From a phage, in sequence record PZ674596.1: 64,000 nt of DNA; one strand, 5' to 3'. The translations under genes and the position numbers were made by a program. The notes under the pieces are model-generated. The model did not search any database. It worked only from the letters and a program-made list of their open reading frames with translations, and was not told the DNA's origin. Of the stretch, positions 8,300 through 58,354 are shown in pieces. Every line of letters begins with the position of its first letter. Positions within the stretch are counted from its first letter, which is position 1.

Positions 8300-9373
8300 A
8301 TGGCAAAAGGAAAATCCGCACTGGCACTTGCTCTGAAAAAGAAAATCGGTAGCAACGACGAAATTCAGAAAGTAACTCATTGGATTGATACAGGCTTTCC
8401 ACCGTTAAACAAAGCTATTTCTGGTCGTTACGATGGCGGCTTCCCATGTGGTCGTATCGTCGAAGTATTCGGTCCTCCAAGTGCAGGGAAAACGTTCCTT
8501 GCAACAGCAGCGATGATCTCCGCTCAAAAACAAGATGGTCTGGCGGTATTCCTCGATCATGAAAACAGTTTTGACGTTGGCCTGGCTGTAGCCAATGGCC
8601 TGAACGCAGATGAGGATGACGGTCAGTGGGTATACAAGCAGCCTGATACCTTCGAAGACTCTGTAGAGTTGATCGGCACAATTCTTAAATTGGTACGTGA
8701 TGAAGAGCTTATTCCTGAATCAGCACCTATCTGTATCGTGGCTGACTCACTTGCGTCTATGGTTCCGAACTCCAAAGCCGAGAAGTTCGAAAAGATGGCT
8801 GAAGGCACTGCCAAAGACAAAGATCAGCTAAACATGAACGACAATACGGCACTGGCTCGTGCGACAAGTGCGAACTTCCCTACTCTGGCTTTGTGGGCAC
8901 GCAAATACAACGCCTGCATCATCTTCTTGAATCAGGTTCGCACAAAAATCGGTGTAATGTTTGGCGACCCTACTACGTCGCCAGGTGGAGATTCACCGAA
9001 GTTCTACGCTTCTGTACGTATCCGTCTTGGTGCATCGGTGATGAAGGATGGTAAAGAGAAGATCGGCCAGGACGTAGGCGCAGAATGCATCAAAAACAAA
9101 GTTGCACCACCGTATGGCAAATGCACCTGGAAATTCTACTTCGATCCTACTCGTGGCCTCGACGTTATCGAATCGCTCGTCGAGTACATGCTGGAAGAAG
9201 GATACCTGCCAAAGAACGCCAGCGGGCGAGTTGAAATTGGTGACAAGAAATACACCAAATCGCAGATCGTCGAGATGTATCGGGAGAAGCCACTGGCTGA
9301 AATCATTGCGGCTTTGCAGGCAATCGACGACCGAAGAGCAAAAGACAACCCCACCGAGTCAGTAGAAGAGTAA
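8300..9373 (+). CDS. RecA-family recombinase (UvsX/RecA-like)
   Basis: 357 aa; RecA-type Walker A VEVFGPPSAGKTFLA; RBS AAAGGAG. Confidence 0.75.
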   Translation: MAKGKSALALALKKKIGSNDEIQKVTHWIDTGFPPLNKAISGRYDGGFPCGRIVEVFGPPSAGKTFLATAAMISAQKQDGLAVFLDHENSFDVGLAVANGLNADEDDGQWVYKQPDTFEDSVELIGTILKLVRDEELIPESAPICIVADSLASMVPNSKAEKFEKMAEGTAKDKDQLNMNDNTALARATSANFPTLALWARKYNACIIFLNQVRTKIGVMFGDPTTSPGGDSPKFYASVRIRLGASVMKDGKEKIGQDVGAECIKNKVAPPYGKCTWKFYFDPTRGLDVIESLVEYMLEEGYLPKNASGRVEIGDKKYTKSQIVEMYREKPLAEIIAALQAIDDRRAKDNPTESVEE

Positions 9374-11899: not shown

Positions 11900-12111
11900 T
11901 GGCATTAACACTGGCAGGTCTGGAAATCGAGAAAACAAGCGGCTACTGGCGTGCTAAGGGTTTCAAGCAGCCTGGCATTCTTGAGCGTCTGGAACGTGAA
12001 GATGGGTATATCGTCCACCAGCGGCGTGAATGGCGTATGTACGATCCAGAAACAGGAAAACTGACTACAAAAGCCGGAACACTTTGGGGTCTGTTAAAGA
12101 AAATACACTAA
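11899..12111 (+). CDS. hypothetical protein
   Basis: 70 aa; ATG overlaps upstream stop (TAATG). Confidence 0.35.
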   Translation: MALTLAGLEIEKTSGYWRAKGFKQPGILERLEREDGYIVHQRREWRMYDPETGKLTTKAGTLWGLLKKIH

Positions 12112-12158
12112 ATGCAAACTGACTGCGGCACGTTCCGCAGTCATATTTCATAGTCGTC

Positions 12159-12691
12159 ACCGCTGACAGCATACACAATCAACTACCGCTGATAGCATAT
12201 CGAGAGTCTATCTCACCGCTCACAGCATACTTTACTCGATTTTTTACCGCTGACAGCATACTTAAGAAATTGCATGAATAATGTGTCCCGGTATGGGTAT
12301 AACCAGAACAAAATTACCGCTGGCAGCATACGAATGTCTGACATATACCATTAATTACCGCTGATAGCATATCCAAACAAAAATTCCTCAATAAAACACC
12401 GCTGACAGCATACGTTCTATCAGGGAGTAGCAGGCAATAAATGCCTTTCACTACAAGCAATCAGCGCAATAGCAATAGAATGTTAGTGAGCGCAAACCTA
12501 TATGGAATGCACTCTTCGAGGTTAGTAACCACTGGGGAGGTATGACAGAGCATTGAGTGGTGATAGATGATTTACCGCTCACAGCATACGTTCATCTCAC
12601 TATACCGCTGGTAGCATATCTTTAACCGTTCACAGCATACTTTTCAGAAAAATAGCCGCTGATAGCATACATTTCACCGCTGACAGCATAT
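12159..12691. repeat. iteron array: 12 direct copies of 16-bp ACCGCTGACAGCATAC (incA-like, downstream of repA)
   Basis: Copies start near 12159, 12185, 12215, 12246, 12316, 12357, 12398, 12574, 12604, 12625, 12655, 12676; all in one orientation, 1-2 mismatches each. Confidence 0.85.
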
Positions 12692-13785
12692 CAAAGCAGT
12701 TTGAGACTATTGGAAAGGATCTCAATCATCTTGATATTTTCAGGCGTCAAATTCTGCGAAAGTTCGGTTATCTTGTTGATAATGTTCTGTTTGGCATCAA
12801 TTTCCCCAGCTTTCTCATCTGGTTTTTTGGGTTCGATGTCTTCAGGTTTTGGCGGTGCGACTTTGAGTTTTGGATTGCGGCTGTGAATCTGGATATAGAT
12901 CGACCGCCCACGCTTAATCTCGCTGTATTCGAGATAGCCCAAATCTTGGAGAGCTTTTAAGCCGTTACGTATAGTCTGATTCTGCGAGCTGACATTCCTG
13001 CTACTCAAATTGAGTCGCGCACGCAATCGAGCAAGCGATACCGGCGCAGGCTTGGTTGGAAGACTTTCGATGAAGGTGTACAGAGCCTGTGCTGTTTCTT
13101 TGCGTGGTAGCTTATTGATAACCTTTAACTGCAAAAGAACCTTATGGTCAAAGCGATATAGTTCGGCCAGCTTCGGTTCTGCATAGAACACCACCGTATC
13201 TTTCTGCTCGTTGTAGTCCACGCTATTGATGAGGTGCACCATCAGAAGCGAGATCTTGTTAGAGCCGTCGACGTTCTTTTCTTCATACGTTCTCTGGAAA
13301 GACAGAGTTGTACGCATGATCTTCAAAAGACTGTTTGTAAGCCGGTCGCGGAGTGTTTTGCGGATCTGTGACGATGGATAGCCACAAAACTTAGCAAATT
13401 TCGTGATGCTTAACTCGACACGACCGTTAGGTTCGCCGTATTCTGCCAGCGAACGCACAACGCCCACCCACGTTTTGAAATCATGATCCATGTCGAGACG
13501 AGGACCGGTTATCTTGATATCGGAATAGCCTTCAGAACGGGCTACTTCGAGCTGGACAAGCTCCTTTGAAGCATCGATCTCATTTGGCTTGTTACGTTTA
13601 CTGTATTTTGTTCCCTTAAGCGTGGGGACGAACAACCCCAGTCGCATCAACGCAATTGGTTGGACTGTATTGTTGCTATTAGGGACAAGTTCCCCTGTGT
13701 ACAATTCAAGGGAACCTTCTTCAAAGTTGTCGATGTTATCTTCTACTTCTTTGTTATTTTTACCTTTTTTATTTTTTGTGGACAT
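12691..13785 (-). CDS. repA: plasmid replication initiator RepA (P1 RepA / RepFIB-like)
   Basis: 364 aa from ATG 13785 (the table's N-terminal 40 aa is read-through of the iteron region); motifs SNNTVQPIALMRLG, DIKITGPRLDMD, LYTFIESLP, HSRNPKLK match my recollection of P1 RepA; flanked by iterons on both sides. Confidence 0.8.
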   Translation of the reverse strand: MSTKNKKGKNNKEVEDNIDNFEEGSLELYTGELVPNSNNTVQPIALMRLGLFVPTLKGTKYSKRNKPNEIDASKELVQLEVARSEGYSDIKITGPRLDMDHDFKTWVGVVRSLAEYGEPNGRVELSITKFAKFCGYPSSQIRKTLRDRLTNSLLKIMRTTLSFQRTYEEKNVDGSNKISLLMVHLINSVDYNEQKDTVVFYAEPKLAELYRFDHKVLLQLKVINKLPRKETAQALYTFIESLPTKPAPVSLARLRARLNLSSRNVSSQNQTIRNGLKALQDLGYLEYSEIKRGRSIYIQIHSRNPKLKVAPPKPEDIEPKKPDEKAGEIDAKQNIINKITELSQNLTPENIKMIEILSNSLKLL

Positions 13786-13805
13786 GTGGACACCTTTGTC
13801 ATTCA

Positions 13806-13907
13806 ACCGCTGACAGCATACTTGATTTGCCGCTGACAGAATACCAAAAACAGTTGGCAGCATACGGTGAACCGCTGACAGACTATCAATTACCGCTGAC
13901 AGCATAC
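13806..13907. repeat. upstream iterons (4 full + 1 half copy), incC/origin-like
   Basis: Same 16-bp iteron near 13806, 13829, 13871, 13892 plus half-site GGCAGCATAC near 13856. Confidence 0.75.
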
Positions 13908-13947
13908 ATGAACATGACTTCAGACCAGTCGTGGCGCGGGTTACAGC

Positions 13948-25410: not shown

Positions 25411-25824
25411 ATGGCAAGAGGTATGTATGTCTTATGCGAAATTGAAGGTGTGCTGGCAAATACCAGCCATCGTAAATCTGTATCTGACTCGGATGCAGGC
25501 CAATTCATTGCCGGTGATGAACTCATTTTCCCCACCAGCCGTATGTTGCGTGGTTTTGCTCGCTCAGGGGCTGAAGTGGTGCTTATCAGTAGCCGCTCTG
25601 AAACTCTTGAAGCGCCCACTAAACGATGGCTGAAAGATTTTGGTGTTGATTACGACTGGCTTCACCTCGTACCGAATAGCACCAGTTATGAGAAGCATAT
25701 TAAGCGCACATTAGCGGAGCATAAAGGCGATCTGCTTATCGCTGCGCTGGTGCACGATCCTCGACTCCGTGCCGCTTTAGCTGACTCTCATCATAGACCG
25801 GTCATCTATGAGGTGAGCAAATGA
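25411..25824 (+). CDS. hypothetical protein
   Basis: 137 aa from ATG overlapping thyA stop; upstream part of table ORF overlaps thyA. Confidence 0.4.
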   Translation: MARGMYVLCEIEGVLANTSHRKSVSDSDAGQFIAGDELIFPTSRMLRGFARSGAEVVLISSRSETLEAPTKRWLKDFGVDYDWLHLVPNSTSYEKHIKRTLAEHKGDLLIAALVHDPRLRAALADSHHRPVIYEVSK

Positions 25825-26297
25825 AGATGATAGCTGCTGTTGGCCGTAACTATGAGATCGGCATAGCGAACGAACTGCCCTGGCGTTGTTCTACCGATCT
25901 GAAGCTATTTAAGAGACTCACCAAAAACGCCACTGTCGTTATGGGGCGTAAAACGATGGAAAGTCTCAAACGCCCTCTTCCAGAGCGTCATAACCTCGTT
26001 TTGACGCGCTCTCATGGCTTTGTACCAAATGGATTCTACCCTGCTGGTGTGGATGATGTGTTGCGATTACCAGAGCCTGTGTGGGTGATTGGCGGGGAAC
26101 AAATTTACTCGCTATTCATGCCGCATGTTGAAGAGATTTGGCTCTCCCACATCGGCGTTGATGTGCCAAACGCCGATGCATTCTTCCCGGCAAGCATGAT
26201 GCGTAATTTAGGCTTTGTGCCTGTTGAAACAGCTTATACCCAACGAGCCAGCGAGGAAGAGCCTGGCTTTTCGCAGATCGTATACAGAAGGTCGTAA
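25821..26297 (+). CDS. folA: dihydrofolate reductase
   Basis: 158 aa; DHFR-like N-terminus MIAAVGRNYEIG..LPW and VVMGRKT; adjacent to thyA as in T4 td/frd. Confidence 0.85.
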   Translation: MKMIAAVGRNYEIGIANELPWRCSTDLKLFKRLTKNATVVMGRKTMESLKRPLPERHNLVLTRSHGFVPNGFYPAGVDDVLRLPEPVWVIGGEQIYSLFMPHVEEIWLSHIGVDVPNADAFFPASMMRNLGFVPVETAYTQRASEEEPGFSQIVYRRS

Positions 26298-37395: not shown

Positions 37396-37421
37396 ACAAC
37401 TAGAAAACAACGGAGTTAAGA

Positions 37422-38063
37422 ATGTCTAGTATTTCCGAAGCTCATATGTTCGCCGCTGGCGCTCATGGTGGCGTTGGTCAGAAAAGAAAATATACCGGCG
37501 AAGACTACATCAACCACCCGGTTGCGGTCCGAGAGATTGTTGCATTGCATGACGGAACCGTGGAGATGCAAATCGCGGCGCTTCTGCATGATGTGGTCGA
37601 AGACACCCATGTAACCATAGAGATGGTTCGTGATCACTTCGGTGAGCGCGTAGCTGAAATGGTTCAGGCTCTGACCAACATTGCAAGGCCAGAAGACGGC
37701 AATCGAATACAGCGTTTCATCATCAATGTCCGGGAGCTGGAGCAAAATCTCGACATGCAGACGCGCATGATCAAGCTGGCTGACCTGCTCGACAATACCT
37801 CTTCTATCGTGAGTCGCGATCCCGAGTTTTCAGCTGTCTACCTCGCAGAGAAAGAACTGATGCTGGACGTACTCTTTCACGGCAAAGAGATTGGTGCCAA
37901 CGCTGATGTTGTCGAGTACATGGAGAGGATAGGTATAGAACACCCGTTGCTATTAAGCGCAATGGCGAAAGTCACTGAAGGTATTGCGCTTCTGAAACCG
38001 GTACACATCAAACGTTATGAAAAACACAAATCGCTGATCTGGAGCGCGTGGGAGGCTGCATGA
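37422..38063 (+). CDS. SpoT/RelA-type HD-domain (p)ppGpp hydrolase-like protein (small alarmone hydrolase)
   Basis: 213 aa; aligns to RelA/SpoT hydrolase domain: EDYINHPVAV..IAALLHDVVEDT..FGERVAEMV..IKLADLLDN. Confidence 0.7.
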   Translation: MSSISEAHMFAAGAHGGVGQKRKYTGEDYINHPVAVREIVALHDGTVEMQIAALLHDVVEDTHVTIEMVRDHFGERVAEMVQALTNIARPEDGNRIQRFIINVRELEQNLDMQTRMIKLADLLDNTSSIVSRDPEFSAVYLAEKELMLDVLFHGKEIGANADVVEYMERIGIEHPLLLSAMAKVTEGIALLKPVHIKRYEKHKSLIWSAWEAA

Positions 38064-38602
38064 AGGTCGAAAAAATAGATGTTCTTTCCTTTGTGCTGAC
38101 GGATCTGGAACGCCTCGATCCGGTTCGAGTAATGATTGAAAACTACGAACCTGGTAAGGGAAGAATCACCATCATCTGCTACGGAAAAGCGTGGACTGCG
38201 GCTTGGTTTGCTATGGGCGGTGATGATGTGCAGACGTTCATTAAGCGGGTCAGCAACGAGTATCTAATCGGCTATTTCGACTCTCAACTGCGAAGCACGG
38301 TCGACGATGACAACGATGCAAATCTGCTTTTCGTGAAGTCAGAAATCATAAAGTTACGAAGAGAGAGAGAAATCGACGCCGTACTGGCTCGTGAAATGTG
38401 GGACGAGGCGGAAAACGCCGATGACGTAAAAGAAAGCTGCTGTTGTTTCGGCGTCGGTAACAAACTGCTGAATCTCTTTGGTGATGATCCGTGGTATGCC
38501 GACTGGCCAACGGTACCAAACCCGAAATACCAGTATCTGGAACGCATTGTGAACGCGGTACGTGAAGGGCTGAAAGAGTTAGACAAGTTAGAGGCATCGT
38601 AA
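38060..38602 (+). CDS. hypothetical protein
   Basis: 180 aa from ATG 38060 overlapping upstream stop. Confidence 0.45.
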   Translation: MKVEKIDVLSFVLTDLERLDPVRVMIENYEPGKGRITIICYGKAWTAAWFAMGGDDVQTFIKRVSNEYLIGYFDSQLRSTVDDDNDANLLFVKSEIIKLRREREIDAVLAREMWDEAENADDVKESCCCFGVGNKLLNLFGDDPWYADWPTVPNPKYQYLERIVNAVREGLKELDKLEAS

Positions 38603-39108
38603 TGAGAGAGAAAATCAAGAACCCGGTCGTCGTATTGTATAAACGGGAAACCAGCGATTCTTATGCGGTATCCATCACTGATGGAAGCCAGAACATGCAC
38701 GATGGTCTGCTAATGGCCGCCGTATCTCCTGATGATTCGGACTACCCTTTCGCCACTTTCGCTATGGTTGGTTACTACATGGCTGCCGAAATTGAGAAGT
38801 TGCGGGCGCAGAGAGACGCATTAGCGGCGGAGAATGTGGCATTGCGATCTAAGGCTGCGGAACTGGCACATGAAGCGTCAAAAATTTACTCGGCATATAA
38901 CGCCACTATCACAGAGCCTGACGGGGATTTTATGGACATGCAGACATTGCATGAAATGCAGTGCATAGAAACTCCAGCCACCGACGCTTTTCTGGCTGAA
39001 GTACGTGCGCAGGGCGTGGAGATGTTTGCGGAGTGTGCATACACACTTGAACATCATGATCACGCATTAGCTTTTGCCGCCGAGCTACGTGAAGGAGGCA
39101 ACCAGTGA
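38602..39108 (+). CDS. hypothetical protein
   Basis: 168 aa; start overlaps upstream stop. Confidence 0.45.
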   Translation: MREKIKNPVVVLYKRETSDSYAVSITDGSQNMHDGLLMAAVSPDDSDYPFATFAMVGYYMAAEIEKLRAQRDALAAENVALRSKAAELAHEASKIYSAYNATITEPDGDFMDMQTLHEMQCIETPATDAFLAEVRAQGVEMFAECAYTLEHHDHALAFAAELREGGNQ

Positions 39109-39404
39109 CTGTATGTCTTATTGATAAACGTCGACGTGGGCAACAAATACCATCTGTTGAAATGCCGAATCACACATGGTTTTGCGTACTTGATATCGAT
39201 GGTATCGATACGTTGATCGACACTCGTCATTACTGCGAAACCGCAACAGCTACTCCTGCAAAAGCAAAGAAAATGGCTGCTCTGATAGAAAACTGGACTC
39301 CACCTGATGGTTGGTGCAATGGGAATGATCGAGATTGGCACGAAAAAATGAAGGGCTATATCTGCGATTTTTTACGTAAATGCAACGGATTCAGGGTGAT
39401 GTGA
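39105..39404 (+). CDS. hypothetical protein
   Basis: 99 aa; GTG start after GAAGGAGG. Confidence 0.4.
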   Translation: MTVCLIDKRRRGQQIPSVEMPNHTWFCVLDIDGIDTLIDTRHYCETATATPAKAKKMAALIENWTPPDGWCNGNDRDWHEKMKGYICDFLRKCNGFRVM

Positions 39405-39405
39405 T

Positions 39406-40098
39406 ATGACCAACATTAACTATCAGGCACTGCGTGAAAAGGCAGAAAAAGCAACGTGGGGAGACTGGGACTCATATAAACCACACCGTGGCGCACGTGG
39501 TTATAAGGTCCGACTAAGTGGTCAGGCCATTGCGCAACACGTTCTGAAAAACAACGCTGAATTTATTGCTGCCTTTAATCCAAAGGTTGCTTTGGCATTA
39601 CTGGATGAACTGGAAAGAAACCAGCAATACATCAAACGCCGTGACCAGGAGAACGAGGAAATTGCGCTAACGGTAGGGAGGCTTCGCGTTGAGCTGGAAG
39701 GCAAAGACAGCAAAATAGCCAATCTTACCGCCGAACGCGATGCTCTTCGTGAAGGTGAGATGGGCGACGCTAGGCATAGCAACACACGGGCCGCAGCTGA
39801 TATCTACTTCCAACTGGTCGAGGAGTGCGAAATTCCTGCTGGCGGTTCTCTGGTCGAGTACGTTGACGATATGCGCGAGAAGTTGGAAGCCGCAGAGAAG
39901 CGCATTGCAGAGTTAGAAAGTGGTTCTCAGGCACAAAAGTTAGTTGAAGCAATCATTGTTGCGATAGAAAACGAACAGGAAAGGCTTTTTGATGAAGATT
40001 ACCTAATGGATTCGAAAGAATGCATTGACGTAATTCGTGAAGAAGTAAAGCGATGGAATGATTCCCGTGCCGCTGGCATTCGCATCAAAGGAGAGTGA
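39406..40098 (+). CDS. hypothetical protein (paralogous C-terminal module)
   Basis: 230 aa; NTRAAADIYFQLVEECEIPAGGSLVEYV matches C-terminus of 36218..36922. Confidence 0.5.
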   Translation: MTNINYQALREKAEKATWGDWDSYKPHRGARGYKVRLSGQAIAQHVLKNNAEFIAAFNPKVALALLDELERNQQYIKRRDQENEEIALTVGRLRVELEGKDSKIANLTAERDALREGEMGDARHSNTRAAADIYFQLVEECEIPAGGSLVEYVDDMREKLEAAEKRIAELESGSQAQKLVEAIIVAIENEQERLFDEDYLMDSKECIDVIREEVKRWNDSRAAGIRIKGE

Positions 40099-40099
40099 T

Positions 40100-40363
40100 A
40101 TGGCAACTTTGACAAAAAAAGAACAAGCATGGTTGAGCGAATTACAGGACGTTCTTGATCGCTGCCCATCACCGAAAAAAATTGGTTTTTACACCATTGG
40201 CGATAAAAGCATTTACCTGTATGACCTGCGCCGCATGGATGAAATCATGGAGGCTCTTGATAATCGTTCGTCGATGGATTGGTGTGTTGCTGTCCATGAT
40301 ATGAATGCCGGATTTGATGAAAGGATTTTGTTCCCCTCGTCAGTTGAAAGCACTGCGGGTTAA
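40100..40363 (+). CDS. hypothetical protein
   Basis: 87 aa from ATG 40100 after AAAGGAGAG; table ORF extends into upstream gene. Confidence 0.4.
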   Translation: MATLTKKEQAWLSELQDVLDRCPSPKKIGFYTIGDKSIYLYDLRRMDEIMEALDNRSSMDWCVAVHDMNAGFDERILFPSSVESTAG

Positions 40364-40373
40364 GGAGTAACAC

Positions 40374-41213
40374 ATGACCACTATAACCGATAAGAAACAG
40401 TATCCAGGCGAGCAATATCTTAATGAGCTAATCACCAACATAGAGTTTGCTGCAAGGGCACCAGTTGAAGTCGTGAGAGCGATGGCAGCAGAGCTACAGA
40501 AGCGGCGCGAAGCTGATAGTGCAGAACCTGCAAGTAATCATGAAGAGTTGCCGCTTGATTATCTCCAAGGTCAAAAAGATGGTCTTGAATGGGCTGCGCA
40601 GCTTGCAGAAGCAAATCACCCACAAACTGGCGACTGGCTTTACGATGACCCGCTGGAGCTGGCTAAAGCTATCAGAAAAGGTCCTGACATGCCCGAATTC
40701 GATGGACCAACTCCGGTAACTCCGGATGGTTGGATAAGCTGTAGTGAGCGAATGCCTGTAATTGGCGAGCTAAATTGGAGAACTAGTTTTCCTTTACTGG
40801 TTATGTGTGAGATCGGCGTTATACCTGCTTATTACGGCTTTGTGAGCGTTAATGGTGATAGGCATTATGGCTTTATGGAGAGTCTTAAATACGGAGACGA
40901 TAACGGCAACCATCCTCAAACTAATGAATATGGTCTGATTAGCAATGTCACACACTGGATGCCACTACCAGAACGCCGCAGGAGTCGAACAGTGAATAAA
41001 GCAGAGTTATTTCAGAAAATATCGGCTCTCGCGACTGAATGTCACGCTATAGCATCTGAGCTTGATGTTGGCGGTGAACGAACCGAGATGTTCGAAATAT
41101 ACAGTGTGCTGCGCAATCTCTGTCGGCGTGGCTACGCTACTCAGGTAGGGCGAATGACTAACCCACTACTTTCATTCTGTGATGAGGATGACTCGGATGA
41201 GGATGACGAATGA
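40374..41213 (+). CDS. hypothetical protein with acidic C-terminal tail
   Basis: 279 aa; ends DEDDSDEDDE; central W..C..RMP / THWMPLP segment. Confidence 0.45.
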   Translation: MTTITDKKQYPGEQYLNELITNIEFAARAPVEVVRAMAAELQKRREADSAEPASNHEELPLDYLQGQKDGLEWAAQLAEANHPQTGDWLYDDPLELAKAIRKGPDMPEFDGPTPVTPDGWISCSERMPVIGELNWRTSFPLLVMCEIGVIPAYYGFVSVNGDRHYGFMESLKYGDDNGNHPQTNEYGLISNVTHWMPLPERRRSRTVNKAELFQKISALATECHAIASELDVGGERTEMFEIYSVLRNLCRRGYATQVGRMTNPLLSFCDEDDSDEDDE

Positions 41214-41593
41214 TGCATAAATCAGTAGCCGGTGAGCTTCAGAAGGAAGTCGATAATACCACTGATCTATTGGACGATATTTTAAGCATTCTCGCGCTGC
41301 TTGAGGCTGGTGATTGGTCAGAACATTGCACTAAAACAGAGCTAGGCGGTCGGCTTGAAAGAGAGATTACACGACTGATTAGCGATGCCCAAAATGATTT
41401 GTCACCTGAGCATCTCCCCTGCGATGTAGTTCTTGTGCCAGGGATGAGGATACACGAAGGCGTCAGAACGAAAACATTATTAACCGCATTACAGAGAAGA
41501 GCCGAACTAAGCTCGCGGATAAAGTTGATGCCATCCAAAATATTTGATGTCGTCAAATTTACGCCATCGCAACATACTGAGAGAGATAAATGA
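41210..41593 (+). CDS. hypothetical protein
   Basis: 127 aa; start overlaps upstream stop. Confidence 0.4.
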   Translation: MMHKSVAGELQKEVDNTTDLLDDILSILALLEAGDWSEHCTKTELGGRLEREITRLISDAQNDLSPEHLPCDVVLVPGMRIHEGVRTKTLLTALQRRAELSSRIKLMPSKIFDVVKFTPSQHTERDK

Positions 41594-42405
41594 GCACGGT
41601 AGCGAAAGATCTCACAGAAGATATTCTCAATGAAATTATTGCTGGTGCAAATACCTCGCTTGAGCAACTTCTTGCGTTAGCACTGAGAGCCGAACGTCGA
41701 GACAGAAATCGTTTTTATGAGCGATTACCAGGGAAGCGACCAGATAGATCGGATGAAGAAGGTTGCGATATAGACTACATGGAGCCTTCAGAGATTTATC
41801 AACTTGGTAAAGATGACGGCTGGAACGCTTATCACGATGCTGTGATGAAGTTGGATGAAAAAGTTAAACCTCTTTCTCGACCGGTAGATCACGGTTTCCG
41901 CGATAACTGCGAATGCTCTAGTTGCCAGACCACGGCCCGTATTTGTTCCGAATTGACAGATAAGTCCAGCCTAATCTACGAAGTTAATGTAGGCGGTAAT
42001 ACATGGGTCGAATGCACAAGAGCTGCATACGTAAGAGCAAAAGACAAGGGTGAATTAACCAGAGTTGTTACCCATCACCCAAATAATGAGCTTAAAGATC
42101 ACCAGATTAGAGAACTGGTGAACGAGTTGCGGGATATTGCGGTTACGTATCACGGAACGCAGCAATTGCGGGAGAAAATTGCCAGAGCAGTGAACAACTC
42201 GCTCAAAGGTGGACAATCCCAACCGAAACGTATACGAATTACACATATAGGTGAAAACGGAACAGAAATCCCCCAATTTTCTGTTGGGGACATCTTTGAT
42301 GTACATGGAGAAGAGTTTGGCGAGCCTCACATCACTATGCCTAGTGGCCATGTTTATTGGCTAAGAGCTATGGAGAAATATGGTGATAAATGGGAAGTGT
42401 TATGA
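41590..42405 (+). CDS. hypothetical protein with Cys-rich motif
   Basis: 271 aa; CECSSCQ..C motif; overlaps next gene start. Confidence 0.45.
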   Translation: MSTVAKDLTEDILNEIIAGANTSLEQLLALALRAERRDRNRFYERLPGKRPDRSDEEGCDIDYMEPSEIYQLGKDDGWNAYHDAVMKLDEKVKPLSRPVDHGFRDNCECSSCQTTARICSELTDKSSLIYEVNVGGNTWVECTRAAYVRAKDKGELTRVVTHHPNNELKDHQIRELVNELRDIAVTYHGTQQLREKIARAVNNSLKGGQSQPKRIRITHIGENGTEIPQFSVGDIFDVHGEEFGEPHITMPSGHVYWLRAMEKYGDKWEVL

Positions 42406-42418
42406 GGGATGCGAAGTT

Positions 42419-42943
42419 ATGACTAAATTTGGAAAGCTGGAAGCTCATTTGCTAACTCGTAACTACCGCCATGATGTGCATCCATATAGACAGTGGATCG
42501 ATGAAAGCGAAGGAGTTGTTACATTCCCTCTATACAGGTTTGATGGGATGTTGGCCGGGTATCAGACATACAGACCAGGCGCTCCTAAGCAGCATAGCAA
42601 TCCGAAGATGGCCCGGTATTTCACACGAGCGCACGGCAGACAGCTACTATGGGGAACCTATCTTCCTTTAAAAGATGGACCGATATGGATAACTGAGTCG
42701 ATTTTTAAAAGTGCAGCAGTGCACAACGCGGGCGGAAATTCGTGGGCGCTGTTAGGTTCGACTTTCTCAGCAGGATTACGTCGTCAACTGGCAATGCTGC
42801 CGTATGACTTTCGCGTAATAGGTGACAATGATGCGGCTGGTGAATCACTTGTGAAGTCTTTCGGAAAAGGTTTTGTGGCCCCGGATCTTGACGAGCTACA
42901 ACCAAATGAAGTGTCTCATTTGATTTTTAGCCATAGCCAATAA
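42419..42943 (+). CDS. Toprim-like domain protein (tentative)
   Basis: 174 aa from ATG 42419; acidic motifs ITESIF and GDNDAAGE spaced like Toprim E and DxD. Confidence 0.4.
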   Translation: MTKFGKLEAHLLTRNYRHDVHPYRQWIDESEGVVTFPLYRFDGMLAGYQTYRPGAPKQHSNPKMARYFTRAHGRQLLWGTYLPLKDGPIWITESIFKSAAVHNAGGNSWALLGSTFSAGLRRQLAMLPYDFRVIGDNDAAGESLVKSFGKGFVAPDLDELQPNEVSHLIFSHSQ

Positions 42944-42959
42944 GCATCCCTTCTCCATT

Positions 42960-43022
42960 AAGGCCACTAGTTGTGGCCTTAAACAATTTGTTTTCTACCT
43001 TTTCTTGTTCGAGAAAATAACG
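42960..43022 (+). promoter_or_regulatory. conserved terminator-promoter cassette
   Basis: AAGGCCACTAGTTGTGGCCTT followed by AAACAATTTGTTTTCTACCTTTTCTTGTTCGAGAAAATAAC. Confidence 0.55.
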
Positions 43023-43079
43023 TTCATTTGTCTGGTGCTATGTACCGATCAGTTGCACTGAGTGAGCTTCTTTCATGTA

Positions 43080-43099
43080 TACTGTATAAATGAACAGTA
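43080..43099 (+). promoter_or_regulatory. LexA (SOS) box upstream of humD-like gene
   Basis: TACTGTATAAATGAACAGTA fits CTGT-N8-ACAG; 17 nt upstream of ATG 43116. Confidence 0.7.
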
Positions 43100-43115
43100 T
43101 TGAGGGCAAAACGCT

Positions 43116-43505
43116 ATGGGCTTCCCTTCTCCTGCGGCGGATTATGCTGAGAGCCGTATTTCTCTTGATCAGCAGATAATTAGACATCCTTCAGCGACCT
43201 ACTTCATGAGAGCGGCTGACAGCCATCATCGTGAGGGAATATTGCAGGGCGCATTGCTGGTGGTCGATTCCTCACTTACCCCGGTTGATGGTTCTCTGCT
43301 TGTATGCGCTCTGGATGGGGAATATCGCGTAAAAAGATACCGGAAGTATCCACGTCAGCATCTGGAGGATTTAAGAACTGGTAAGAAGGAAGCATTGCCA
43401 AAGGATGACGATGGATGCACGGGCAGCAATGCCGTGTTTGGTGTGATCACTCACATTATCAACGACGCAAGAAGTGGCGAGTTTGATGATTGTCCCGTGA
43501 TGTAG
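43116..43505 (+). CDS. humD: UmuD'-like protein lacking the N-terminal arm (HumD-like)
   Basis: 129 aa beginning MGFPSPAADY, i.e. at the UmuD Cys24-Gly25 processing site; Ser and Lys of the catalytic dyad alignable (ADSH; VKR); P1 HumD has the same form. Confidence 0.75.
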   Translation: MGFPSPAADYAESRISLDQQIIRHPSATYFMRAADSHHREGILQGALLVVDSSLTPVDGSLLVCALDGEYRVKRYRKYPRQHLEDLRTGKKEALPKDDDGCTGSNAVFGVITHIINDARSGEFDDCPVM

Positions 43506-43516
43506 GAGAACTGATT

Positions 43517-43542
43517 AGGCGGTGCATTGCACCGCCTTTTTA
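43517..43542 (+). terminator. Rho-independent terminator between convergent humD and mrp
   Basis: AGGCGGTGCA-tt-GCACCGCCT followed by TTTTT. Confidence 0.7.
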
Positions 43543-44643
43543 TCACACTGCGCGGAATGCGATTTCGCCAGGTATTACTTCACCTTGCCAATACATTTGG
43601 GCAGCAACGCGATCTGCGAGGTCACGATAAATAGCTGTAAATTCGCTATCTGGACGACTAATAACGGTTGGTGTTCCGTTATCCAGATCTTCACGAAGAG
43701 AGATATGAAGTGGCATTTGGCCTAACAACTGCGTGTTGTATTTCTCGGCCAGTTTCTGTGCGCCACCGGTGCCAAAAATTGGCTCGTGATGACCGCAGTT
43801 ACTGCAAATATGCACACTCATGTTTTCAACGATACCCAGTACCGGCACTTCGACTTTTTCGAACATCACAATGCCTTTCTTCGCATCGATCAGCGCGATG
43901 TCTTGCGGCGTAGTTACCACAACCGCACCAGTTACAGGAATGTTCTGCGCCAGCGTCAACTGAATATCACCAGTGCCCGGCGGCATATCGAGAACAAGAT
44001 AGTCCAGATCAGGCCACAATGTTTCCTGCAACATCTGCATTAACGCCTTGCTCGCCATCGGTCCACGCCACACCATTGCATTGTCGTCGGTGACCAGATA
44101 ACCAATAGAGTTGGTTGCCAGGCCATGAGACATGATAGGTGCCATGTGAGTACCGTCAGGTGAGGTTGGACGTTGGTTTTCCGCGCCCAGCATGGTTGGA
44201 ATTGATGGACCATAGATATCGGCATCCAAAATACCAACTTTCGCACCTTCAGCAGCCAACGCCAGTGCCAGGTTTACCGCCGTGGAGGATTTACCCACGC
44301 CGCCCTTGCCTGAGCTGACGGCGATAATGTTCTTAACGCCATTAATGCCTGGTTGGTTTTTGACGCGCTTAAGCGTGGCAATGTTGTACGACAGCTTCCA
44401 GTCAATAGCCTTTGCGCCAGTGATACGGAGCAGATCACCACTACATTGCTCTTTCAGGTCTTCAAAAGGCTTATTCCACACGAAAGGCATGATTAGTTCG
44501 ACATGCAGTGTGTCATCCATCAACGCAACATGGTGTAACGCTTTAAGCGTAGTCAGGTTGTGTTTCAGGGTTGGGTGCTGAAAATTAGCCAGCGTACCGG
44601 CTACCATTGCTCTCAGGGCATCCGGCGATTTGGACTCGCTCAT
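43543..44643 (-). CDS. mrp: Fe-S cluster carrier ATPase Mrp/ApbC (host-type)
   Basis: 366 aa; deviant Walker A SGKGGVGKSS; matches my recollection of enterobacterial Mrp. Confidence 0.9.
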   Translation of the reverse strand: MSESKSPDALRAMVAGTLANFQHPTLKHNLTTLKALHHVALMDDTLHVELIMPFVWNKPFEDLKEQCSGDLLRITGAKAIDWKLSYNIATLKRVKNQPGINGVKNIIAVSSGKGGVGKSSTAVNLALALAAEGAKVGILDADIYGPSIPTMLGAENQRPTSPDGTHMAPIMSHGLATNSIGYLVTDDNAMVWRGPMASKALMQMLQETLWPDLDYLVLDMPPGTGDIQLTLAQNIPVTGAVVVTTPQDIALIDAKKGIVMFEKVEVPVLGIVENMSVHICSNCGHHEPIFGTGGAQKLAEKYNTQLLGQMPLHISLREDLDNGTPTVISRPDSEFTAIYRDLADRVAAQMYWQGEVIPGEIAFRAV

Positions 44644-44800: not shown

Positions 44801-46834
44801 ATGACCCAAGTCGCGAAGAAAATTCTGGTGACGTGCGCGCTGCCGTACGCTAACGGCTCAATCCACCTCGGCCATATGCTGGAGCACATCCAGGCTGATG
44901 TCTGGGTTCGTTACCAGCGAATGCGCGGCCACGAGGTTAATTTCATCTGTGCCGACGATGCCCACGGTACGCCGATCATGTTGAAAGCACAGCAGCTTGG
45001 TATCACACCGGAGCAGATGATTGGCGAAATGAGTCAGGAACATCAGACTGATTTCGCAGGCTTTAACATCAGCTATGACAACTATCACTCGACGCACAGC
45101 GAAGAGAACCGTCAGTTGTCCGAGCTTATCTATACTCGCCTGAAAGAGAACGGTTTTATTAAAAACCGCACCATCTCTCAGCTGTACGACCCGGAAAAAG
45201 GCATGTTCCTGCCGGACCGTTTTGTAAAAGGCACATGCCCGAAATGTAAAGCGCCGGATCAATACGGCGATAACTGTGAAGTCTGCGGCGCTACTTACAG
45301 CCCGACTGAACTGATCGAGCCGAAATCGGTAGTTTCTGGTGCTACGCCGGTAATGCGTGATTCCGAACACTTCTTCTTTGATCTGCCTTCTTTCAGCGAA
45401 ATGTTGCAGGCATGGACCCGCAGCGGTGCGTTGCAGGAGCAGGTGGCAAACAAAATGCAGGAGTGGTTTGAATCTGGCCTGCAACAGTGGGATATCTCCC
45501 GCGATGCGCCGTACTTCGGTTTTGAAATTCCGAACGCACCGGGCAAATATTTCTACGTCTGGCTGGACGCGCCGATTGGCTACATGGGTTCCTTCAAGAA
45601 TCTGTGCGACAAACGCGGCGACACTACCAGCTTCGACGAATACTGGAAGAAAGACTCCACCGCCGAGCTGTACCACTTCATCGGTAAAGATATCGTTTAC
45701 TTCCACAGCCTGTTCTGGCCTGCCATGCTGGAAGGCAGCAACTTCCGCAAGCCGACCAACCTGTTTGTTCACGGCTATGTGACGGTGAACGGCGCGAAGA
45801 TGTCCAAGTCTCGCGGCACCTTTATTAAAGCCAGCACCTGGCTGAATCATTTTGACGCCGACAGCCTGCGTTACTACTACACTGCGAAACTCTCTTCGCG
45901 CATTGATGATATCGATCTCAATCTGGAAGATTTCGTTCAGCGTGTGAATGCCGATATCGTTAACAAAGTGGTTAACCTGGCCTCCCGTAATGCAGGCTTT
46001 ATCAACAAGCGTTTTGACGGCGTGCTGGCAAGCGAACTGGCTGACCCGCAACTGTACAAAACCTTTACTGATGCCGCTGAAGTGATTGGCGAAGCATGGG
46101 AAAGCCGCGAATTTGGCAAAGCTATCCGTGAAATCATGGCACTGGCTGACCTGGCTAACCGCTATGTTGATGAACAGGCTCCGTGGGTGGTGGCGAAGCA
46201 GGAAGGACGCGATGCCGATCTGCAGGCGATTTGCTCTATGGGCATTAACCTGTTCCGCGTGCTGATGACGTACCTGAAACCGGTACTGCCGAAACTGACT
46301 GAACGTGCAGAAGCATTCCTGAATACAGAACTGACCTGGGATGGTATCCAGCAACCGCTGCTGGGCCATAAAGTGAATCCGTTCAAGGCACTGTATAACC
46401 GTATCGATATGAAACAGGTGGAAGCACTGGTGGAAGCATCCAAAGAAGAAGTGAAAGCCACAGCTGCACCGGTAACTGGCCCACTGGCTGACGACCCGAT
46501 TCAGGAAACCATCACCTTTGACGACTTCGCCAAAGTTGACCTGCGTGTGGCGCTGATTGAAAACGCGGAGTTTGTCGAAGGTTCTGACAAACTGCTTCGC
46601 CTGACGCTGGATCTCGGTGGTGAAAAGCGTAATGTCTTCTCAGGCATCCGTTCCGCTTATCCAGATCCACAGGCACTGATTGGTCGTCACACCATTATGG
46701 TGGCTAACCTGGCACCACGTAAAATGCGCTTCGGTATCTCTGAAGGCATGGTGATGGCTGCTGGCCCCGGCGGGAAAGATATCTTCCTGTTAAGCCCGGA
46801 TGCTGGTGCTAAACCTGGCCACCAGGTTAAGTAA
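44801..46834 (+). CDS. metG: methionyl-tRNA synthetase (host-type)
   Basis: 677 aa from ATG 44801 (table ORF has spurious 43-aa extension); [16 protein letters not shown], Zn knuckle CPKCK..CEVCG; near-identical to enterobacterial MetG as I recall it. Confidence 0.95.
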
Positions 46835-50099: not shown

Positions 50100-50411
50100 A
50101 TGAAAAAATCATTGGTTCTTGGTCTGGACAAAGACCAGAAGAGAAAAGAGAAGCCTGCGCTGGTTGCTCAATTAACTTTGCTGGACATCGTTGCCAATGG
50201 AACCTCTATTCGTCTGTTCCGTGAAACAGCGGTGTCTTTCGATAAAAACACCTTTACTCGTTATGTAATGAATGTTCGTCGCCAGCGTGGAAAAGGCTGG
50301 GTGGCATTTCAAAGAATGTGGCCGGAACATCAGCTCGAACTGGCTTTGATGGAAGTTAACCGCGTGGCCCAGCAAGAGATTCAGAGAGCATCAGTGATGG
50401 CAATAGCCTGA
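50100..50411 (+). CDS. hypothetical protein
   Basis: 103 aa from ATG 50100 after ACGGAG. Confidence 0.45.
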   Translation: MKKSLVLGLDKDQKRKEKPALVAQLTLLDIVANGTSIRLFRETAVSFDKNTFTRYVMNVRRQRGKGWVAFQRMWPEHQLELALMEVNRVAQQEIQRASVMAIA

Positions 50412-54622: not shown

Positions 54623-55144
54623 TCAAAACGGTAAAATTCGTTCAACCCAATCGAAGAATACAAGTGTTTTTCTGCCGTCTTCTAACTTAAGAGTGACCTG
54701 GCAAGCATCAACGCCTCTTGATATCCCTTCTATTTCACGACCGTCTGCCATGTAGACCCTTATAGATTTGCCGTTTTGGTAAGCCTGACGACATATCTTA
54801 AAAAAGTCACGACGTGATGGCTGATTGTCAACATAGTCTGGATGTATTGTTAGCCTACCTTTGAACTCGCGAGCAATGCCATCGATTACACCTGATTCAA
54901 TTGTGCTAATGCGCTCAAGTGGGAGTCTTATACGATTTTCTTTATCATATGGAAGCGGGCATAAATCTAGCTTATTGCGGGAAGGCATTGTCCCCTGAAC
55001 GTACATGCAAAACACCTGACCGTCTTCAAGCGTGACTCTTACAGGAATGTTGTTTTTCCGCCAGAACATAAGTATGTTTTCAGCATGTTCGTAGTCTCGT
55101 GGCCAGACTTCTGCTGGAATGCCGTAGGTGATGTCTTTAACCAT
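54623..55144 (-). CDS. hypothetical protein with internal tandem repeat of ~80-aa domain (weak Sm/Hfq-like signature)
   Basis: 173 aa; halves share R..N.IPVRVTLEDGQV / GKSIRVYMADGREIEG pattern; ends 3 nt before the secreted-protein gene. Confidence 0.45.
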   Translation of the reverse strand: MVKDITYGIPAEVWPRDYEHAENILMFWRKNNIPVRVTLEDGQVFCMYVQGTMPSRNKLDLCPLPYDKENRIRLPLERISTIESGVIDGIAREFKGRLTIHPDYVDNQPSRRDFFKICRQAYQNGKSIRVYMADGREIEGISRGVDACQVTLKLEDGRKTLVFFDWVERILPF

Positions 55145-55246
55145 AGTCTACCTTTTTAAGTCTTTTTTGGTCATTATATACATCTCTATGATGCGTAGAC
55201 AGACTAACCGTACATTCCAACAAAAATTGATTATGGAACAAGTTTC

Positions 55247-56047
55247 ATGAAGAATGGGGTGAATAAAAAATACTCATTAGCATTGTTAATAGCGGCTTTA
55301 CTATTAACAGGTTGTGATTCTGATGAAGAGCGAGCCATAAATCTGGTCGAGAAGGATATTCGCTCTACACTGCTAGATCCTGATGCTGGTCGGTTCACGA
55401 ATATGCGAGCTATTCAGTTAGGTGAAAATAGCTATTCATATATGGTATGTGGAGAGGTGAATGGCAAAAACGTCTTGAACGCCTATACAGGTGCGACCGC
55501 ATTCAATGCACACATCTTTGATGTTCGTGAACGTAACCCGATTGTATTCGTTGCAATGGATAAAAATACCAACTCGGCAAGAGAACGATTACGTTTTGAA
55601 CGCCAAAATCTAGCATGTAAAGAAAATGGTGTGAAACTTTATCTGGAAAACGAATCTAATATCAGGAAGGAAAAAGAGAAAATAGATGATTTAAAAAAAA
55701 CTCCATTAGGTCAGGCTGTGTTTGATGCTGCAAGTGATTCGACATATGTGAGTAGAGAGTTGGGCGAATCGAGAGGTGTTAGTGAAGTGTATGCAAGAGA
55801 AAATGATAAATATGCTCTTGTTAGCGTCACCAATTATGACACTCCTGACTTTTACAAATTTAGGAAAAAAGATAACGGTGAACTAGAACCTGTTAGAGGA
55901 CTGTCTTACACCGGCTATCCATTCGCGGTTACACTGTGCCATTCTGAACAAACAGATTATGACAAATGCATAACAGAAGAAGAAATCAAGTTGCTTCGAG
56001 ACGAAAAGAATAAGCTGGATGATTTTGTCGTGCCACCAGAAGAATAA
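55247..56047 (+). CDS. lipoprotein of unknown function
   Basis: 266 aa; signal peptide with lipobox LLTGC; only plus-strand gene in the low-GC island. Confidence 0.55.
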   Translation: MKNGVNKKYSLALLIAALLLTGCDSDEERAINLVEKDIRSTLLDPDAGRFTNMRAIQLGENSYSYMVCGEVNGKNVLNAYTGATAFNAHIFDVRERNPIVFVAMDKNTNSARERLRFERQNLACKENGVKLYLENESNIRKEKEKIDDLKKTPLGQAVFDAASDSTYVSRELGESRGVSEVYARENDKYALVSVTNYDTPDFYKFRKKDNGELEPVRGLSYTGYPFAVTLCHSEQTDYDKCITEEEIKLLRDEKNKLDDFVVPPEE

Positions 56048-56106
56048 CATATACAAAATATTTAATTGCTGTTAACATTTAATCGTTCAGACATAGGGAA
56101 AGTCCT

Positions 56107-56144
56107 ATGCCCTCGACAAATCTTTCTGGTATTGTCGAGGGCAT
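56107..56144. terminator. bidirectional hairpin between convergent genes
   Basis: ATGCCCTCGACAA...TTGTCGAGGGCAT inverted repeat. Confidence 0.6.
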
Positions 56145-56169
56145 GTTTCACATTTATAGGTAGATAGCG

Positions 56170-57303
56170 TTAATTGGCGTTTTCGTTCTTCTCTTTTTTG
56201 CTAATTTCATCACATGCAAGGTTCATTATGTCTATGTTTTCTTGTTTTTGAAGGTTGCCGACAATTTTTTGGCGCAATTCATAAAATCGCTCGCGTGGTA
56301 TAGCTTCCTTGTTGCCGCTGATGTGAAGTATTGCGTGACAGCTAGGGCAGACGGCAATCAGATCTGTTTTTGGGTTCACGCTTCGTGCACCTTCGCCTTG
56401 TGAAAGTGGGATGATGTGGTGAGCGTGTAGCAGCGTTTTCGTTTCTTTACCGTCAATTTCCTTGCCGTATATTTCCGACATCGTTCTGCAACATAGTTGA
56501 CACCTGTAGTCTGCGTTTGCCAGAACGTCATTCCTTAACCCGGATACGCGGCTACGATGTTGCGACTGGATTAATCTTGTTTCGCCCTCTATATATTCCT
56601 CAACTTCTTCTTTCTGGAGGTCGTAGCTGATTTCTTCTTGAGTTACGTTGTCTTCTGCTTTGGCTGAGACTGCATGAATCTCTTTCTTATTCAACGAGAA
56701 AGGTGATTTGAGAGCATCAGCACTGTTTTGCCCTCTTGAATGTTGTGATTTTAGAGCAAGATTGTAAATCTCTTTTAATTTGACATTTTTTTTGTTTGTT
56801 CTAAAGAACTTTCTGCTCTCTACTTGTGAGATAATCCCTGATTCTATATATTGAATTAACACACGAAGAAAATGTTCTATAGATTTTTTACTTTTGAATG
56901 AAAAGGAATAGCCGACTTTCTTTCTCAACTCGTTTTCGCTAAAGAACTCTTTCAGATTTTCGTCGTCAGTCAGGTTAATGGTTGCACCTGCCCAGGTTGA
57001 AGCTTCTACAATTTCAGGAATAACCTCTTGGTCGCCAAGCTGATTGTTTATTTCATCCAGCATTTTAAAGACTGTCAATATTGGATACGGATTCGTCACC
57101 AGACCGTTAGAGGATTTCGTTCTAGGCCCATTCTTTTTTATAATGATGGGGTGCTGTTGAGAAGTTTTCTTTAATTGTAAATAATAAAGGTTTATATTAT
57201 TATTCGTTGATATACCTGCCGGTTTTATCAAGGATAATTTTTCATCACATGCAATATCATCTATTATATTTCTTAGGTCACACGTTTTTATAAATTGACG
57301 CAT
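56170..57303 (-). CDS. HNH-nuclease-domain protein with unknown N-terminal domain
   Basis: 377 aa; C-terminal CQLCC...HAHHIIPLS...CPSCH HNH signature; low GC; RBS GGAGGA lies in a CCTCCGAA/TTCGGAGG hairpin. Confidence 0.6.
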   Translation of the reverse strand: MRQFIKTCDLRNIIDDIACDEKLSLIKPAGISTNNNINLYYLQLKKTSQQHPIIIKKNGPRTKSSNGLVTNPYPILTVFKMLDEINNQLGDQEVIPEIVEASTWAGATINLTDDENLKEFFSENELRKKVGYSFSFKSKKSIEHFLRVLIQYIESGIISQVESRKFFRTNKKNVKLKEIYNLALKSQHSRGQNSADALKSPFSLNKKEIHAVSAKAEDNVTQEEISYDLQKEEVEEYIEGETRLIQSQHRSRVSGLRNDVLANADYRCQLCCRTMSEIYGKEIDGKETKTLLHAHHIIPLSQGEGARSVNPKTDLIAVCPSCHAILHISGNKEAIPRERFYELRQKIVGNLQKQENIDIMNLACDEISKKEKNENAN

Positions 57304-57443
57304 ATATCCTCCGAATTTCTTCGGAGGCGGAGCCTACAAATATCGTTCAGCCAATCAAGAAATTTTTTCAGCCGGAGGTGTACATTTCAAAAAATGTGAC
57401 GAATGTCACATGCAGGTGCTCTCATACACCTGCATGTAGACTA

Positions 57444-58010
57444 TTAATCATTCAATAATCTATATTTTCTTTTGATTAAATCTTCACCTTTTTTGGTGAA
57501 CACAAAACCAAATTGCGATTTTTTGTTTAGACGAAGGACTCTGTTATCCAACGCATCGGTTGATGGAATCAATGTTTGATCATCTATCCAATTAAGTAGC
57601 GTAAGAAAGTTCAGCAGCCTCAACGTTGTTGTGCGAAGCTCTTTCGATATATTTTCAATGCTGGCAATTCGTCTTTCTTTTTTCTCAGGTGGTACAGATA
57701 ATTGTTCTTGAGGTTTCGTGGATAGATAATCAATTTCGTTTGCTGCATCGAATGATATGTGTGGCGTAATTTTGCTAAAAAAGCCTTTCGCTGACTCACT
57801 TGATAATAAACCAGACCTATTCATATCGTTTGTTATTCTGTACAGGAGTGGACTGTGTTTCATTTCAGGATAACGTTGATAAAAGTTAAGCAATTCAAAA
57901 GCAGCATTAGCGCCAACAAGAAAATCAGAAGGATCGCTGACTTTCCAGAAAGAATGATTTTTCTTAGCGCCAGTGGTGTCAACAAATGATAATTCTTTTA
58001 ACCAACTCAT
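57444..58010 (-). CDS. hypothetical protein
   Basis: 188 aa from ATG 58010 with RBS AAGGAG; inverted repeat GATGTGCTC-N13-GAGCACATC overlaps the RBS. Confidence 0.45.
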   Translation of the reverse strand: MSWLKELSFVDTTGAKKNHSFWKVSDPSDFLVGANAAFELLNFYQRYPEMKHSPLLYRITNDMNRSGLLSSESAKGFFSKITPHISFDAANEIDYLSTKPQEQLSVPPEKKERRIASIENISKELRTTTLRLLNFLTLLNWIDDQTLIPSTDALDNRVLRLNKKSQFGFVFTKKGEDLIKRKYRLLND

Positions 58011-58075
58011 GATGTGCTCCTTTCTAACAAGTGAGCACATCATAGAATTAGTAGATAGGGGGTAAATATGAAATG

Positions 58076-58354
58076 TTACGGCAACCTGCTCAGTATTTCC
58101 TCTAAATCTTTTTTTGTCATATTGGAGTTTTCATAGATGCGCATGATTTTCTCACGCGTCTTAGCGGAAACCCCAACGGCAGATGTGACTTTGTCAAATT
58201 CAGCCATAGTCATCGTCTCCAGAATGGCATTGATAACTTCAGCCTTAGACATCTTGATTTTTTTCTCTTTGAGTTTTATTTGAAATTTTCCAAGTTTTTC
58301 ATTGGCCTTATCAGACAATGCCACTTGGCAATAAGTTGTTTTTTTTTCGCTCAT
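58076..58354 (-). CDS. small hypothetical protein
   Basis: 92 aa, Lys-rich; starts 2 nt after helicase stop. Confidence 0.4.
   Translation of the reverse strand: MSEKKTTYCQVALSDKANEKLGKFQIKLKEKKIKMSKAEVINAILETMTMAEFDKVTSAVGVSAKTREKIMRIYENSNMTKKDLEEILSRLP

Follow-up and report, generated by a model that had tools for sequence, protein, structure and literature searches.

A predicted LexA-controlled humD cassette encoding a pre-truncated UmuD′-like protein in an SSU5-like phage-plasmid

The Locus and the Element That Carries It

The window analysed here, a 64-kb stretch of phage DNA (PZ674596.1), contains a small gene, humD, located downstream of a toprim/primase-like gene and followed by a convergent apbC gene and by metG (Table 1). 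The ORF upstream of humD (42380-42943) matches the PHROG 849 DNA primase. The terminator-like hairpin after this gene would insulate humD from upstream transcription and, since terminator-like hairpins are present on both sides, humD looks monocistronic.

Table 1. Coordinates of the features of the humD region and of related genes in the window
Feature	Position	Strand	Remarks
Pol III alpha homologue	1805-5323	+	
RecA homologue	8300-9373	+	PF00154, 145.8 bits
Terminator-like hairpin	42958-42982	+	after the toprim/primase-like gene
Candidate sigma-70 promoter	43053-43083	+	TTGCAC-N19-TATACT, read from the sequence
LexA (SOS) box, predicted	43080-43099		TACTGTATAAATGAACAGTA; 3 mismatches to the 20-mer consensus
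Shine-Dalgarno-like GAGGG	43102-43106	+	9 nt before the ATG; plausible ribosome-binding site
humD	43116-43505	+	ORF for a 129-aa pre-truncated UmuD′-like protein, S24 fold
Terminator-like hairpin and T-run	43517-43537	+	closes the humD unit; just beyond the 3′ end of the convergent apbC
apbC (mrp)	43543-44643	-	carried by the phage-plasmid itself
metG, essential methionyl-tRNA synthetase	44801-46834	+	carried by the phage-plasmid itself

The window as a whole is colinear with p1, the 108-kb plasmid of WEM25. Its humD region shares 98-99% identity with Escherichia coli plasmids of about 108 kb, and Escherichia phage Cyrano encodes an identical HumD protein. The WEM25 replicon carries siphovirus structural genes together with genes for partition proteins of the ParB/RepB/Spo0J family, RepA, DnaE, DnaB, primase, ligase, RecA, NrdAB, ThyA, and DHFR. 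The window is assigned to an SSU5/pHCM2-like phage-plasmid, and neither to P1 nor to a chromosome. Strain LF82 harbours Cyrano, itself described as an SSU5-like phage-plasmid, and ciprofloxacin induces it (PMC9928086). The order apbC-metG on the plasmid is the same as in the E. coli chromosome, and a prophage integrated at the E. coli metG locus was therefore considered, but it was rejected because the window is colinear with SSU5-like plasmids carrying apbC-metG; the pair is plasmid-borne in all relatives. The two genes are 88.6% identical to those of K-12 in DNA, while the proteins are 94% (ApbC) and 98.8% (MetG) identical; a protein identity above the DNA identity indicates that both are under purifying selection. 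The 720-aa TTG ORF of the ORF list overextends metG, whose real start is the one in Table 1. LF82 lysogens express the apbC homologue (PMC9928086).

Several other features of the element were noticed. Megablast against the WEM25 plasmid, colinear elsewhere, found no match for the replication-initiator region (12111-13946), which contains an ORF on the minus strand (12691-13905) for a Rep3-type initiator, so the replicon module has apparently been swapped. Two further mosaic stretches (37396-41884 and 55138-58106) show little or no match to WEM25 p1, and the first of them, just upstream of the toprim-humD region, holds small Ea22/ead-like genes. A phage-type DHFR is encoded at 25821-26297 on the plus strand (PF00186); PGAP names its homologue in WEM25 p1 as the trimethoprim-resistance protein DfrA51, and DfrA51-type trimethoprim resistance has been described for SSU5 (PMC12217456). 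PADLOC gave no defence-system match, and neither the Rfam scan nor the tRNA scan of the window returned a hit.

Identity of the HumD Protein

The product of humD begins with MGFPSPAADY. An in-frame TGA codon (43101-43103) lies five codons 5′ of the ATG, so a longer N-terminus, and with it an N-terminal arm, is ruled out. The protein matches the NCBIfam model NF051876 ("HumD family translesion DNA polymerase"), an equivalog model with a cut-off of 120 bits, at 219.8 bits and with residues 1-129 on profile positions 1-129. It also matches PHROG 811 (UmuD-like protein) and the Pfam family PF00717 (Peptidase_S24; 37.9 bits versus a threshold of 23.3). In the alignments, the identity of window HumD reaches 91% with P1 HumD and 44% with UmuD of E. 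coli K-12, and its residue 2 falls on Gly25 of UmuD, with which UmuD′ begins (i.e., at the Cys24/Gly25 cleavage position). The original prediction, namely a UmuD′-like protein that starts at the point of RecA-mediated cleavage and is homologous to both UmuD and P1 HumD, is thus corroborated by the full-length family match and by the alignment. This start, a Met followed by GFPSP, is common to 108 of the 121 HumD cluster representatives.

Two other identities were considered and rejected. Against the canonical UmuD model NF007621 the protein reaches 87 bits, under the cut-off of 110, and it has no arm, an ADSH motif, and no umuC beside it. Against the LexA repressor model TIGR00498 it reaches 27.2 bits versus a cut-off of 110.95, and the C-domain alone aligns, leaving the winged-helix DNA-binding domain uncovered; the label "LexA family transcriptional regulator" that some databases attach to relatives of this protein is therefore a misnomer. 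At the structural level, the best PDB match by sequence is UmuD′ (1UMU; E = 6.7e-23). An AF2 model built from a shallow family alignment was weak (pLDDT 61.5) and was used just for confirmation of the fold; a Foldseek search with this weak model also placed 1UMU at the top (E = 6e-6), with the complex of UmuD and the RecA filament among the best matches.

By these homology criteria the locus belongs to the HumD family proper. It is no new gene, since RefSeq already lists an identical protein as HumD. The comparison of window humD with P1 humD gives a dN/dS of 0.048 at a dS of 0.87; the coding sequence is under strong purifying selection.

Expression Signals and the Predicted LexA Box

The predicted LexA box upstream of humD has the core CTGTATAAATGAACAG, with the arms CTGT and ACAG, at 43082-43097. 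The CTGT-N8-ACAG box announced in the original prediction is therefore present, with the trivial correction that 18 nt, instead of 17, separate the end of the core from the humD ATG (16 nt from the end of the 20-mer). The three mismatches of TACTGTATAAATGAACAGTA to the consensus TACTGTATATATATACAGTA all fall within the AT-rich spacer. None of 100 shuffles yielded a 20-mer as close to the LexA consensus, and this is the sole CTG-N10-CAG site with six or fewer mismatches from the consensus within the window. It is important to note that the bare CTGT-N8-ACAG pattern is not significant: it occurs twice in the window against 0.84 expected, and at least two occurrences were found in 17 of 100 shuffles. 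Its count was accordingly dropped as evidence, and the match of the 20-mer together with the conservation across loci was used instead. The second occurrence, at 50214-50229 (CTGTTCCGTGAAACAG), has a GC-rich spacer and no TA flanks and was discarded as a chance match.

The candidate −10 hexamer TATACT (43078-43083) overlaps the left arm of the predicted LexA box, and the arrangement TTGCAC/TTTCAC...TATACT recurs upstream of the P1-type and other humD variants. A strict sigma-70 scan (spacers of 16-18 nt) called no promoter upstream of humD; since the candidate, with its 19-nt spacer, goes uncalled by such a scan, the position of the humD promoter must be taken as provisional. The GAGGT/GAGGG motif before humD is conserved in homologous loci.

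Conservation of the Box and of the Cassette

In the GenBank record of P1, a feature located 19 nt before humD carries the label "LexA binding site in the regulatory region of lxr and humD", and the 16-nt core of this site is identical in the alignment to that of the window. The homology between P1 and the window spans window positions 43069-43504 (436 bp, 85% nucleotide identity). It starts just ahead of the LexA box and reaches the stop codon; beyond this segment P1 and the window share nothing. No homologue of P1 Lxr was found in the window. LexA binding at the window box would be expected by analogy with P1 humD.

The footprinting sample comprised 80 viral-contig loci with humD. In P1-like and SSU5-like loci, which represent at least five distinct upstream backgrounds, the CTGT/ACAG arms are perfect and lie 36-39 nt before the ATG, and the spacers between them vary among the viral humD loci (TATAAATGA, TATGAATAA, TATGGATAA, TATGTGTAT, and TACAGATAA). 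Fixed arms with free spacers and flanks match what selection for LexA binding would predict. One lambdoid group (72% identity) presents two tandem LexA boxes with one mismatch each. Another one (71%) has no LexA box upstream of humD, which in this group is probably co-transcribed with the upstream gene.

Some SSU5-like elements, those of the Cyrano type, have a HumD protein 100% identical to that of the window and unrelated upstream DNA. Their box, TACTGTATGTGTATACAGTA, is different from that of the window and closer to the LexA consensus (L007, 2960-3000; L091, L092, L095-L098, upstream of the match). An identical protein behind unrelated DNA points to a recombination breakpoint at the start codon and to an independent retention of SOS control. 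Regarding expression, the Cyrano humD is absent from the genes expressed in unstressed LF82 lysogens (PMC9928086), a silence that gives weak support to the SOS model.

In PLSDB the cassette was found in 660 plasmids, in two identity classes that correspond to SSU5-like and P1-like sizes. The LexA box and humD behave as one discrete cassette that P1-like and SSU5-like phage-plasmids, two unrelated families, have exchanged.

Polymerase Partner and Proposed Mechanism

The original prediction also stated that the window lacks a gene for a Y-family polymerase, and the searches agree. With the E. coli UmuC and DinB proteins as tblastn queries, the best match in the window and in the complete WEM25 p1 plasmid had E = 1.2, and no Y-family polymerase appears in the PGAP annotation of WEM25 p1. 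Likewise, none of the 80 viral loci has a UmuC/DinB match within 3 kb of humD, and among species-representative genomes none of the 10 genomic loci of HumD type (i.e., with a Met-GFPSP start and an acidic tail) has umuC within 4 kb. The full-length umuD homologues of the same set of genomes, which carry the N-terminal arm and the Cys/Ala-Gly site, mostly have umuC within a few dozen nucleotides; a handful have it 1-2 kb or a few kb away, and six gave no hit. In a Chitinophagaceae MAG (L081, ~4001-4345), a UmuD-like ORF appears to start at the position of the cleavage site, with "KNTM" alone preceding it after a stop, and a umuC homologue lies directly next to it; the ORF may encode a pre-truncated UmuD′ that has kept its polymerase in cis. 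Nearly every complete E. coli genome (5423 of 5426) carries umuC, and the UmuC of the host would be the obvious partner for window HumD.

The reading that we favour, and that we hold to be probable, is that of a self-contained, LexA-repressed humD cassette that would yield a pre-activated UmuD′ form for the host UmuC. In the undamaged cell, host LexA bound to the box overlapping the −10 region would keep humD off. Upon DNA damage, the RecA*-mediated cleavage of LexA would derepress the gene, and HumD would be synthesised directly in the UmuD′ form, without the 24-residue arm, making the RecA*-mediated self-cleavage unnecessary. HumD would then dimerise and bind the chromosomal UmuC of the host to form a Pol V-like translesion polymerase, HumD2-UmuC, which would be available earlier than the delay of the host UmuD-to-UmuD′ conversion allows. 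The complementation of UmuD′ and the partnership with UmuC are expected for window HumD from its 91%-identical P1 counterpart. In this sense, the P1 GenBank note states that HumD "functionally complements E. coli UmuD′", and a passage of PMC7092418, citing McLenigan et al. (1999), presents P1 HumD as an already activated, shorter UmuD; further papers refer to the same 1999 study. No experiments on the window allele or on any SSU5-like element were found in the literature. Overall, the original interpretation is supported at the level of the sequence.

The simple model of a UmuD′ mimic does not account for the near-invariant C-terminal tail, and the RecA and Pol III alpha homologues encoded by the element itself make other partners of HumD conceivable, beside or instead of the host proteins.

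C-terminal Tail, Active Site, and Alternative Roles

Window HumD ends with SGEFDDCPVM (residues 120-129; window 43478-43502). This 10-residue acidic extension is found in HumD proteins and is absent from UmuD, including the types encoded next to umuC. No other part of the family is as conserved: the form EFDDCPV[M/I/L] appears in approximately 95% of the 121 representatives, and more distant members carry tails such as EFDDIPVI, VFDDTVVF, and similar ones. The tail, noted also at the loci L011, L012, L015, L048, and L053, resembles the C-terminal tip of SSB (MDFDDDIPF), and the confidence of the weak AF2 model is low in this part. The literature search on the HumD tail, or on mimicry of the SSB tail by HumD, returned nothing relevant. 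The near-invariant EFDDCPVM tail without a UmuD counterpart may be a new detail. The tail might serve as an interaction peptide, as a degron, or as a contact for UmuC, and should be taken as a lead and not as a finding.

UmuD and UmuD′ contact the alpha, epsilon, and beta subunits of Pol III, and the N-terminal arm of UmuD has targeting and regulatory functions. HumD might act mainly through partners other than UmuC, such as the replisome, the DnaE and RecA of the element, or the SSB-interaction sites reached through the acidic tail, so that it would be a damage-induced modulator of replication instead of a mutagenesis factor. The tail fixed in the family and missing from UmuD-type proteins encoded beside umuC, its likeness to the SSB tip, the two homologues carried by the element, and the low AF2 confidence, as for a flexible peptide (although in a weak model), are all compatible with such a role. 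However, P1 HumD, with 91% identity and the same tail, is recorded as complementing UmuD′, a function that requires UmuC, and the resemblance to the SSB motif is short and was noticed post hoc; we consider this alternative unlikely. A more specific proposal, which appears quite unlikely as well, is that the tail ([E/V]-F-D-D-x-P-x-hydrophobic-COOH) mimics the SSB tip and that HumD, or HumD2-UmuC, would dock on the SSB-Ct pockets of replication and repair proteins, or compete with SSB for them, replacing the functions of the lost arm. If it were true, the solo phage HumD would be mechanistically distinct from UmuD′ and more than a pre-cleaved copy of it.

The active-site region bears on another possibility, that of HumD as an active S24 protease in trans, for example on host UmuD, LexA, or a phage repressor once damage has occurred. 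The equivalents of UmuD Ser60 and Lys97 are kept in window HumD as S36 and K73, so the Ser/Lys dyad has not been lost, and K73 is retained in 118 of the 121 representatives. Position 36, on the contrary, is Ser in 76 of them, Thr in 43 (36%), and Ala in 2, and in the family x-[S/T]-H-[F/Y/H], with one residue deleted, takes the place of the GDSM motif of UmuD (ADSH in window HumD). Such a relaxed Ser position and degraded motif would be expected in a protein for which self-cleavage has become dispensable, and a protease acting in trans seems very improbable. The Thr found at the position of the "catalytic" serine in more than one third of the family may also be a new detail.

Finally, humD might be a passenger in decay that has lost its function, with the LexA-like sequence as a leftover, as could be thought of an accessory cassette that moves between unrelated phage-plasmids and lacks the box in one lambdoid group. 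This reading is disfavoured to the point of being scarcely credible by the low dN/dS, by the intact ORF with a start shared by most of the representatives, and by LexA arms that stay invariant while spacers and flanks vary.

The preferred reading thus continues to be the LexA-repressed cassette that supplies a UmuD′ form to host UmuC. A cassette shared by unrelated phage-plasmids and kept under strong purifying selection indicates that a supply of a Pol V accessory subunit that would be induced by damage and would need no cleavage is evidently useful to very different temperate elements. Plasmids of clinical and animal E. coli often carry humD, which could affect SOS mutagenesis and, through it, the way resistance evolves. 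The conserved tail and the relaxed serine raise testable questions on how HumD differs from UmuD′.

Comparison with Known Systems

The locus offers nothing new in kind: knowledge of HumD goes back to 1999, and hundreds of E. coli phage-plasmids already have this protein in their annotation. The closest system is that of P1, whose HumD was reportedly the subject of a study by McLenigan et al. in 1999 (J Bacteriol 181:7005). P1 HumD (AAQ14181) has, like that of the window, 129 amino acids, the Met-Gly-Phe-Pro-Ser-Pro start, and the same C-terminal tail, and in both cases the core CTGTATAAATGAACAG lies just upstream in a phage without umuC. The backbones differ, since P1 is a myovirus whereas the window belongs to an unrelated SSU5-like siphovirus. 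P1 has the divergent lxr and the downstream phd-doc, and neither accompanies humD in the window; here humD is placed, unlike in P1, between the toprim gene and apbC-metG, and the distance from the box to the ATG is 3 nt shorter.

The UmuD and UmuD′ proteins of E. coli (PDB 1UMU, 1AY9, and 1I4V) have in common with HumD the LexA-like S24 fold, the GFPSPAADY...HPSATYF block, the Ser/Lys positions, and a promoter controlled by a LexA box, which is a predicted one in the window. In contrast to UmuD, window HumD lacks the 24-residue arm and the Cys-Gly site, and therefore a RecA*-dependent activation; it does not form an operon with umuC, and it presents a 4-residue insertion before the last strand. 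N15 gp26, phiKO2 gp23, the proteins of HK140/HK639, and those of other lambdoid prophages have the same truncated architecture and the tail, with 60-71% identity to window HumD, and most of them have LexA-like boxes upstream, some being imperfect and in tandem or absent. Other mobile elements carry SOS-controlled accessory proteins of the S24 family for translesion synthesis, such as those of mucAB, impCAB, rumAB, and samAB (PMC11541004). In these operons a cleavable UmuD homologue of full length is accompanied by a Y-family polymerase of its own, whereas the humD of the window is a solo gene for a pre-truncated protein.
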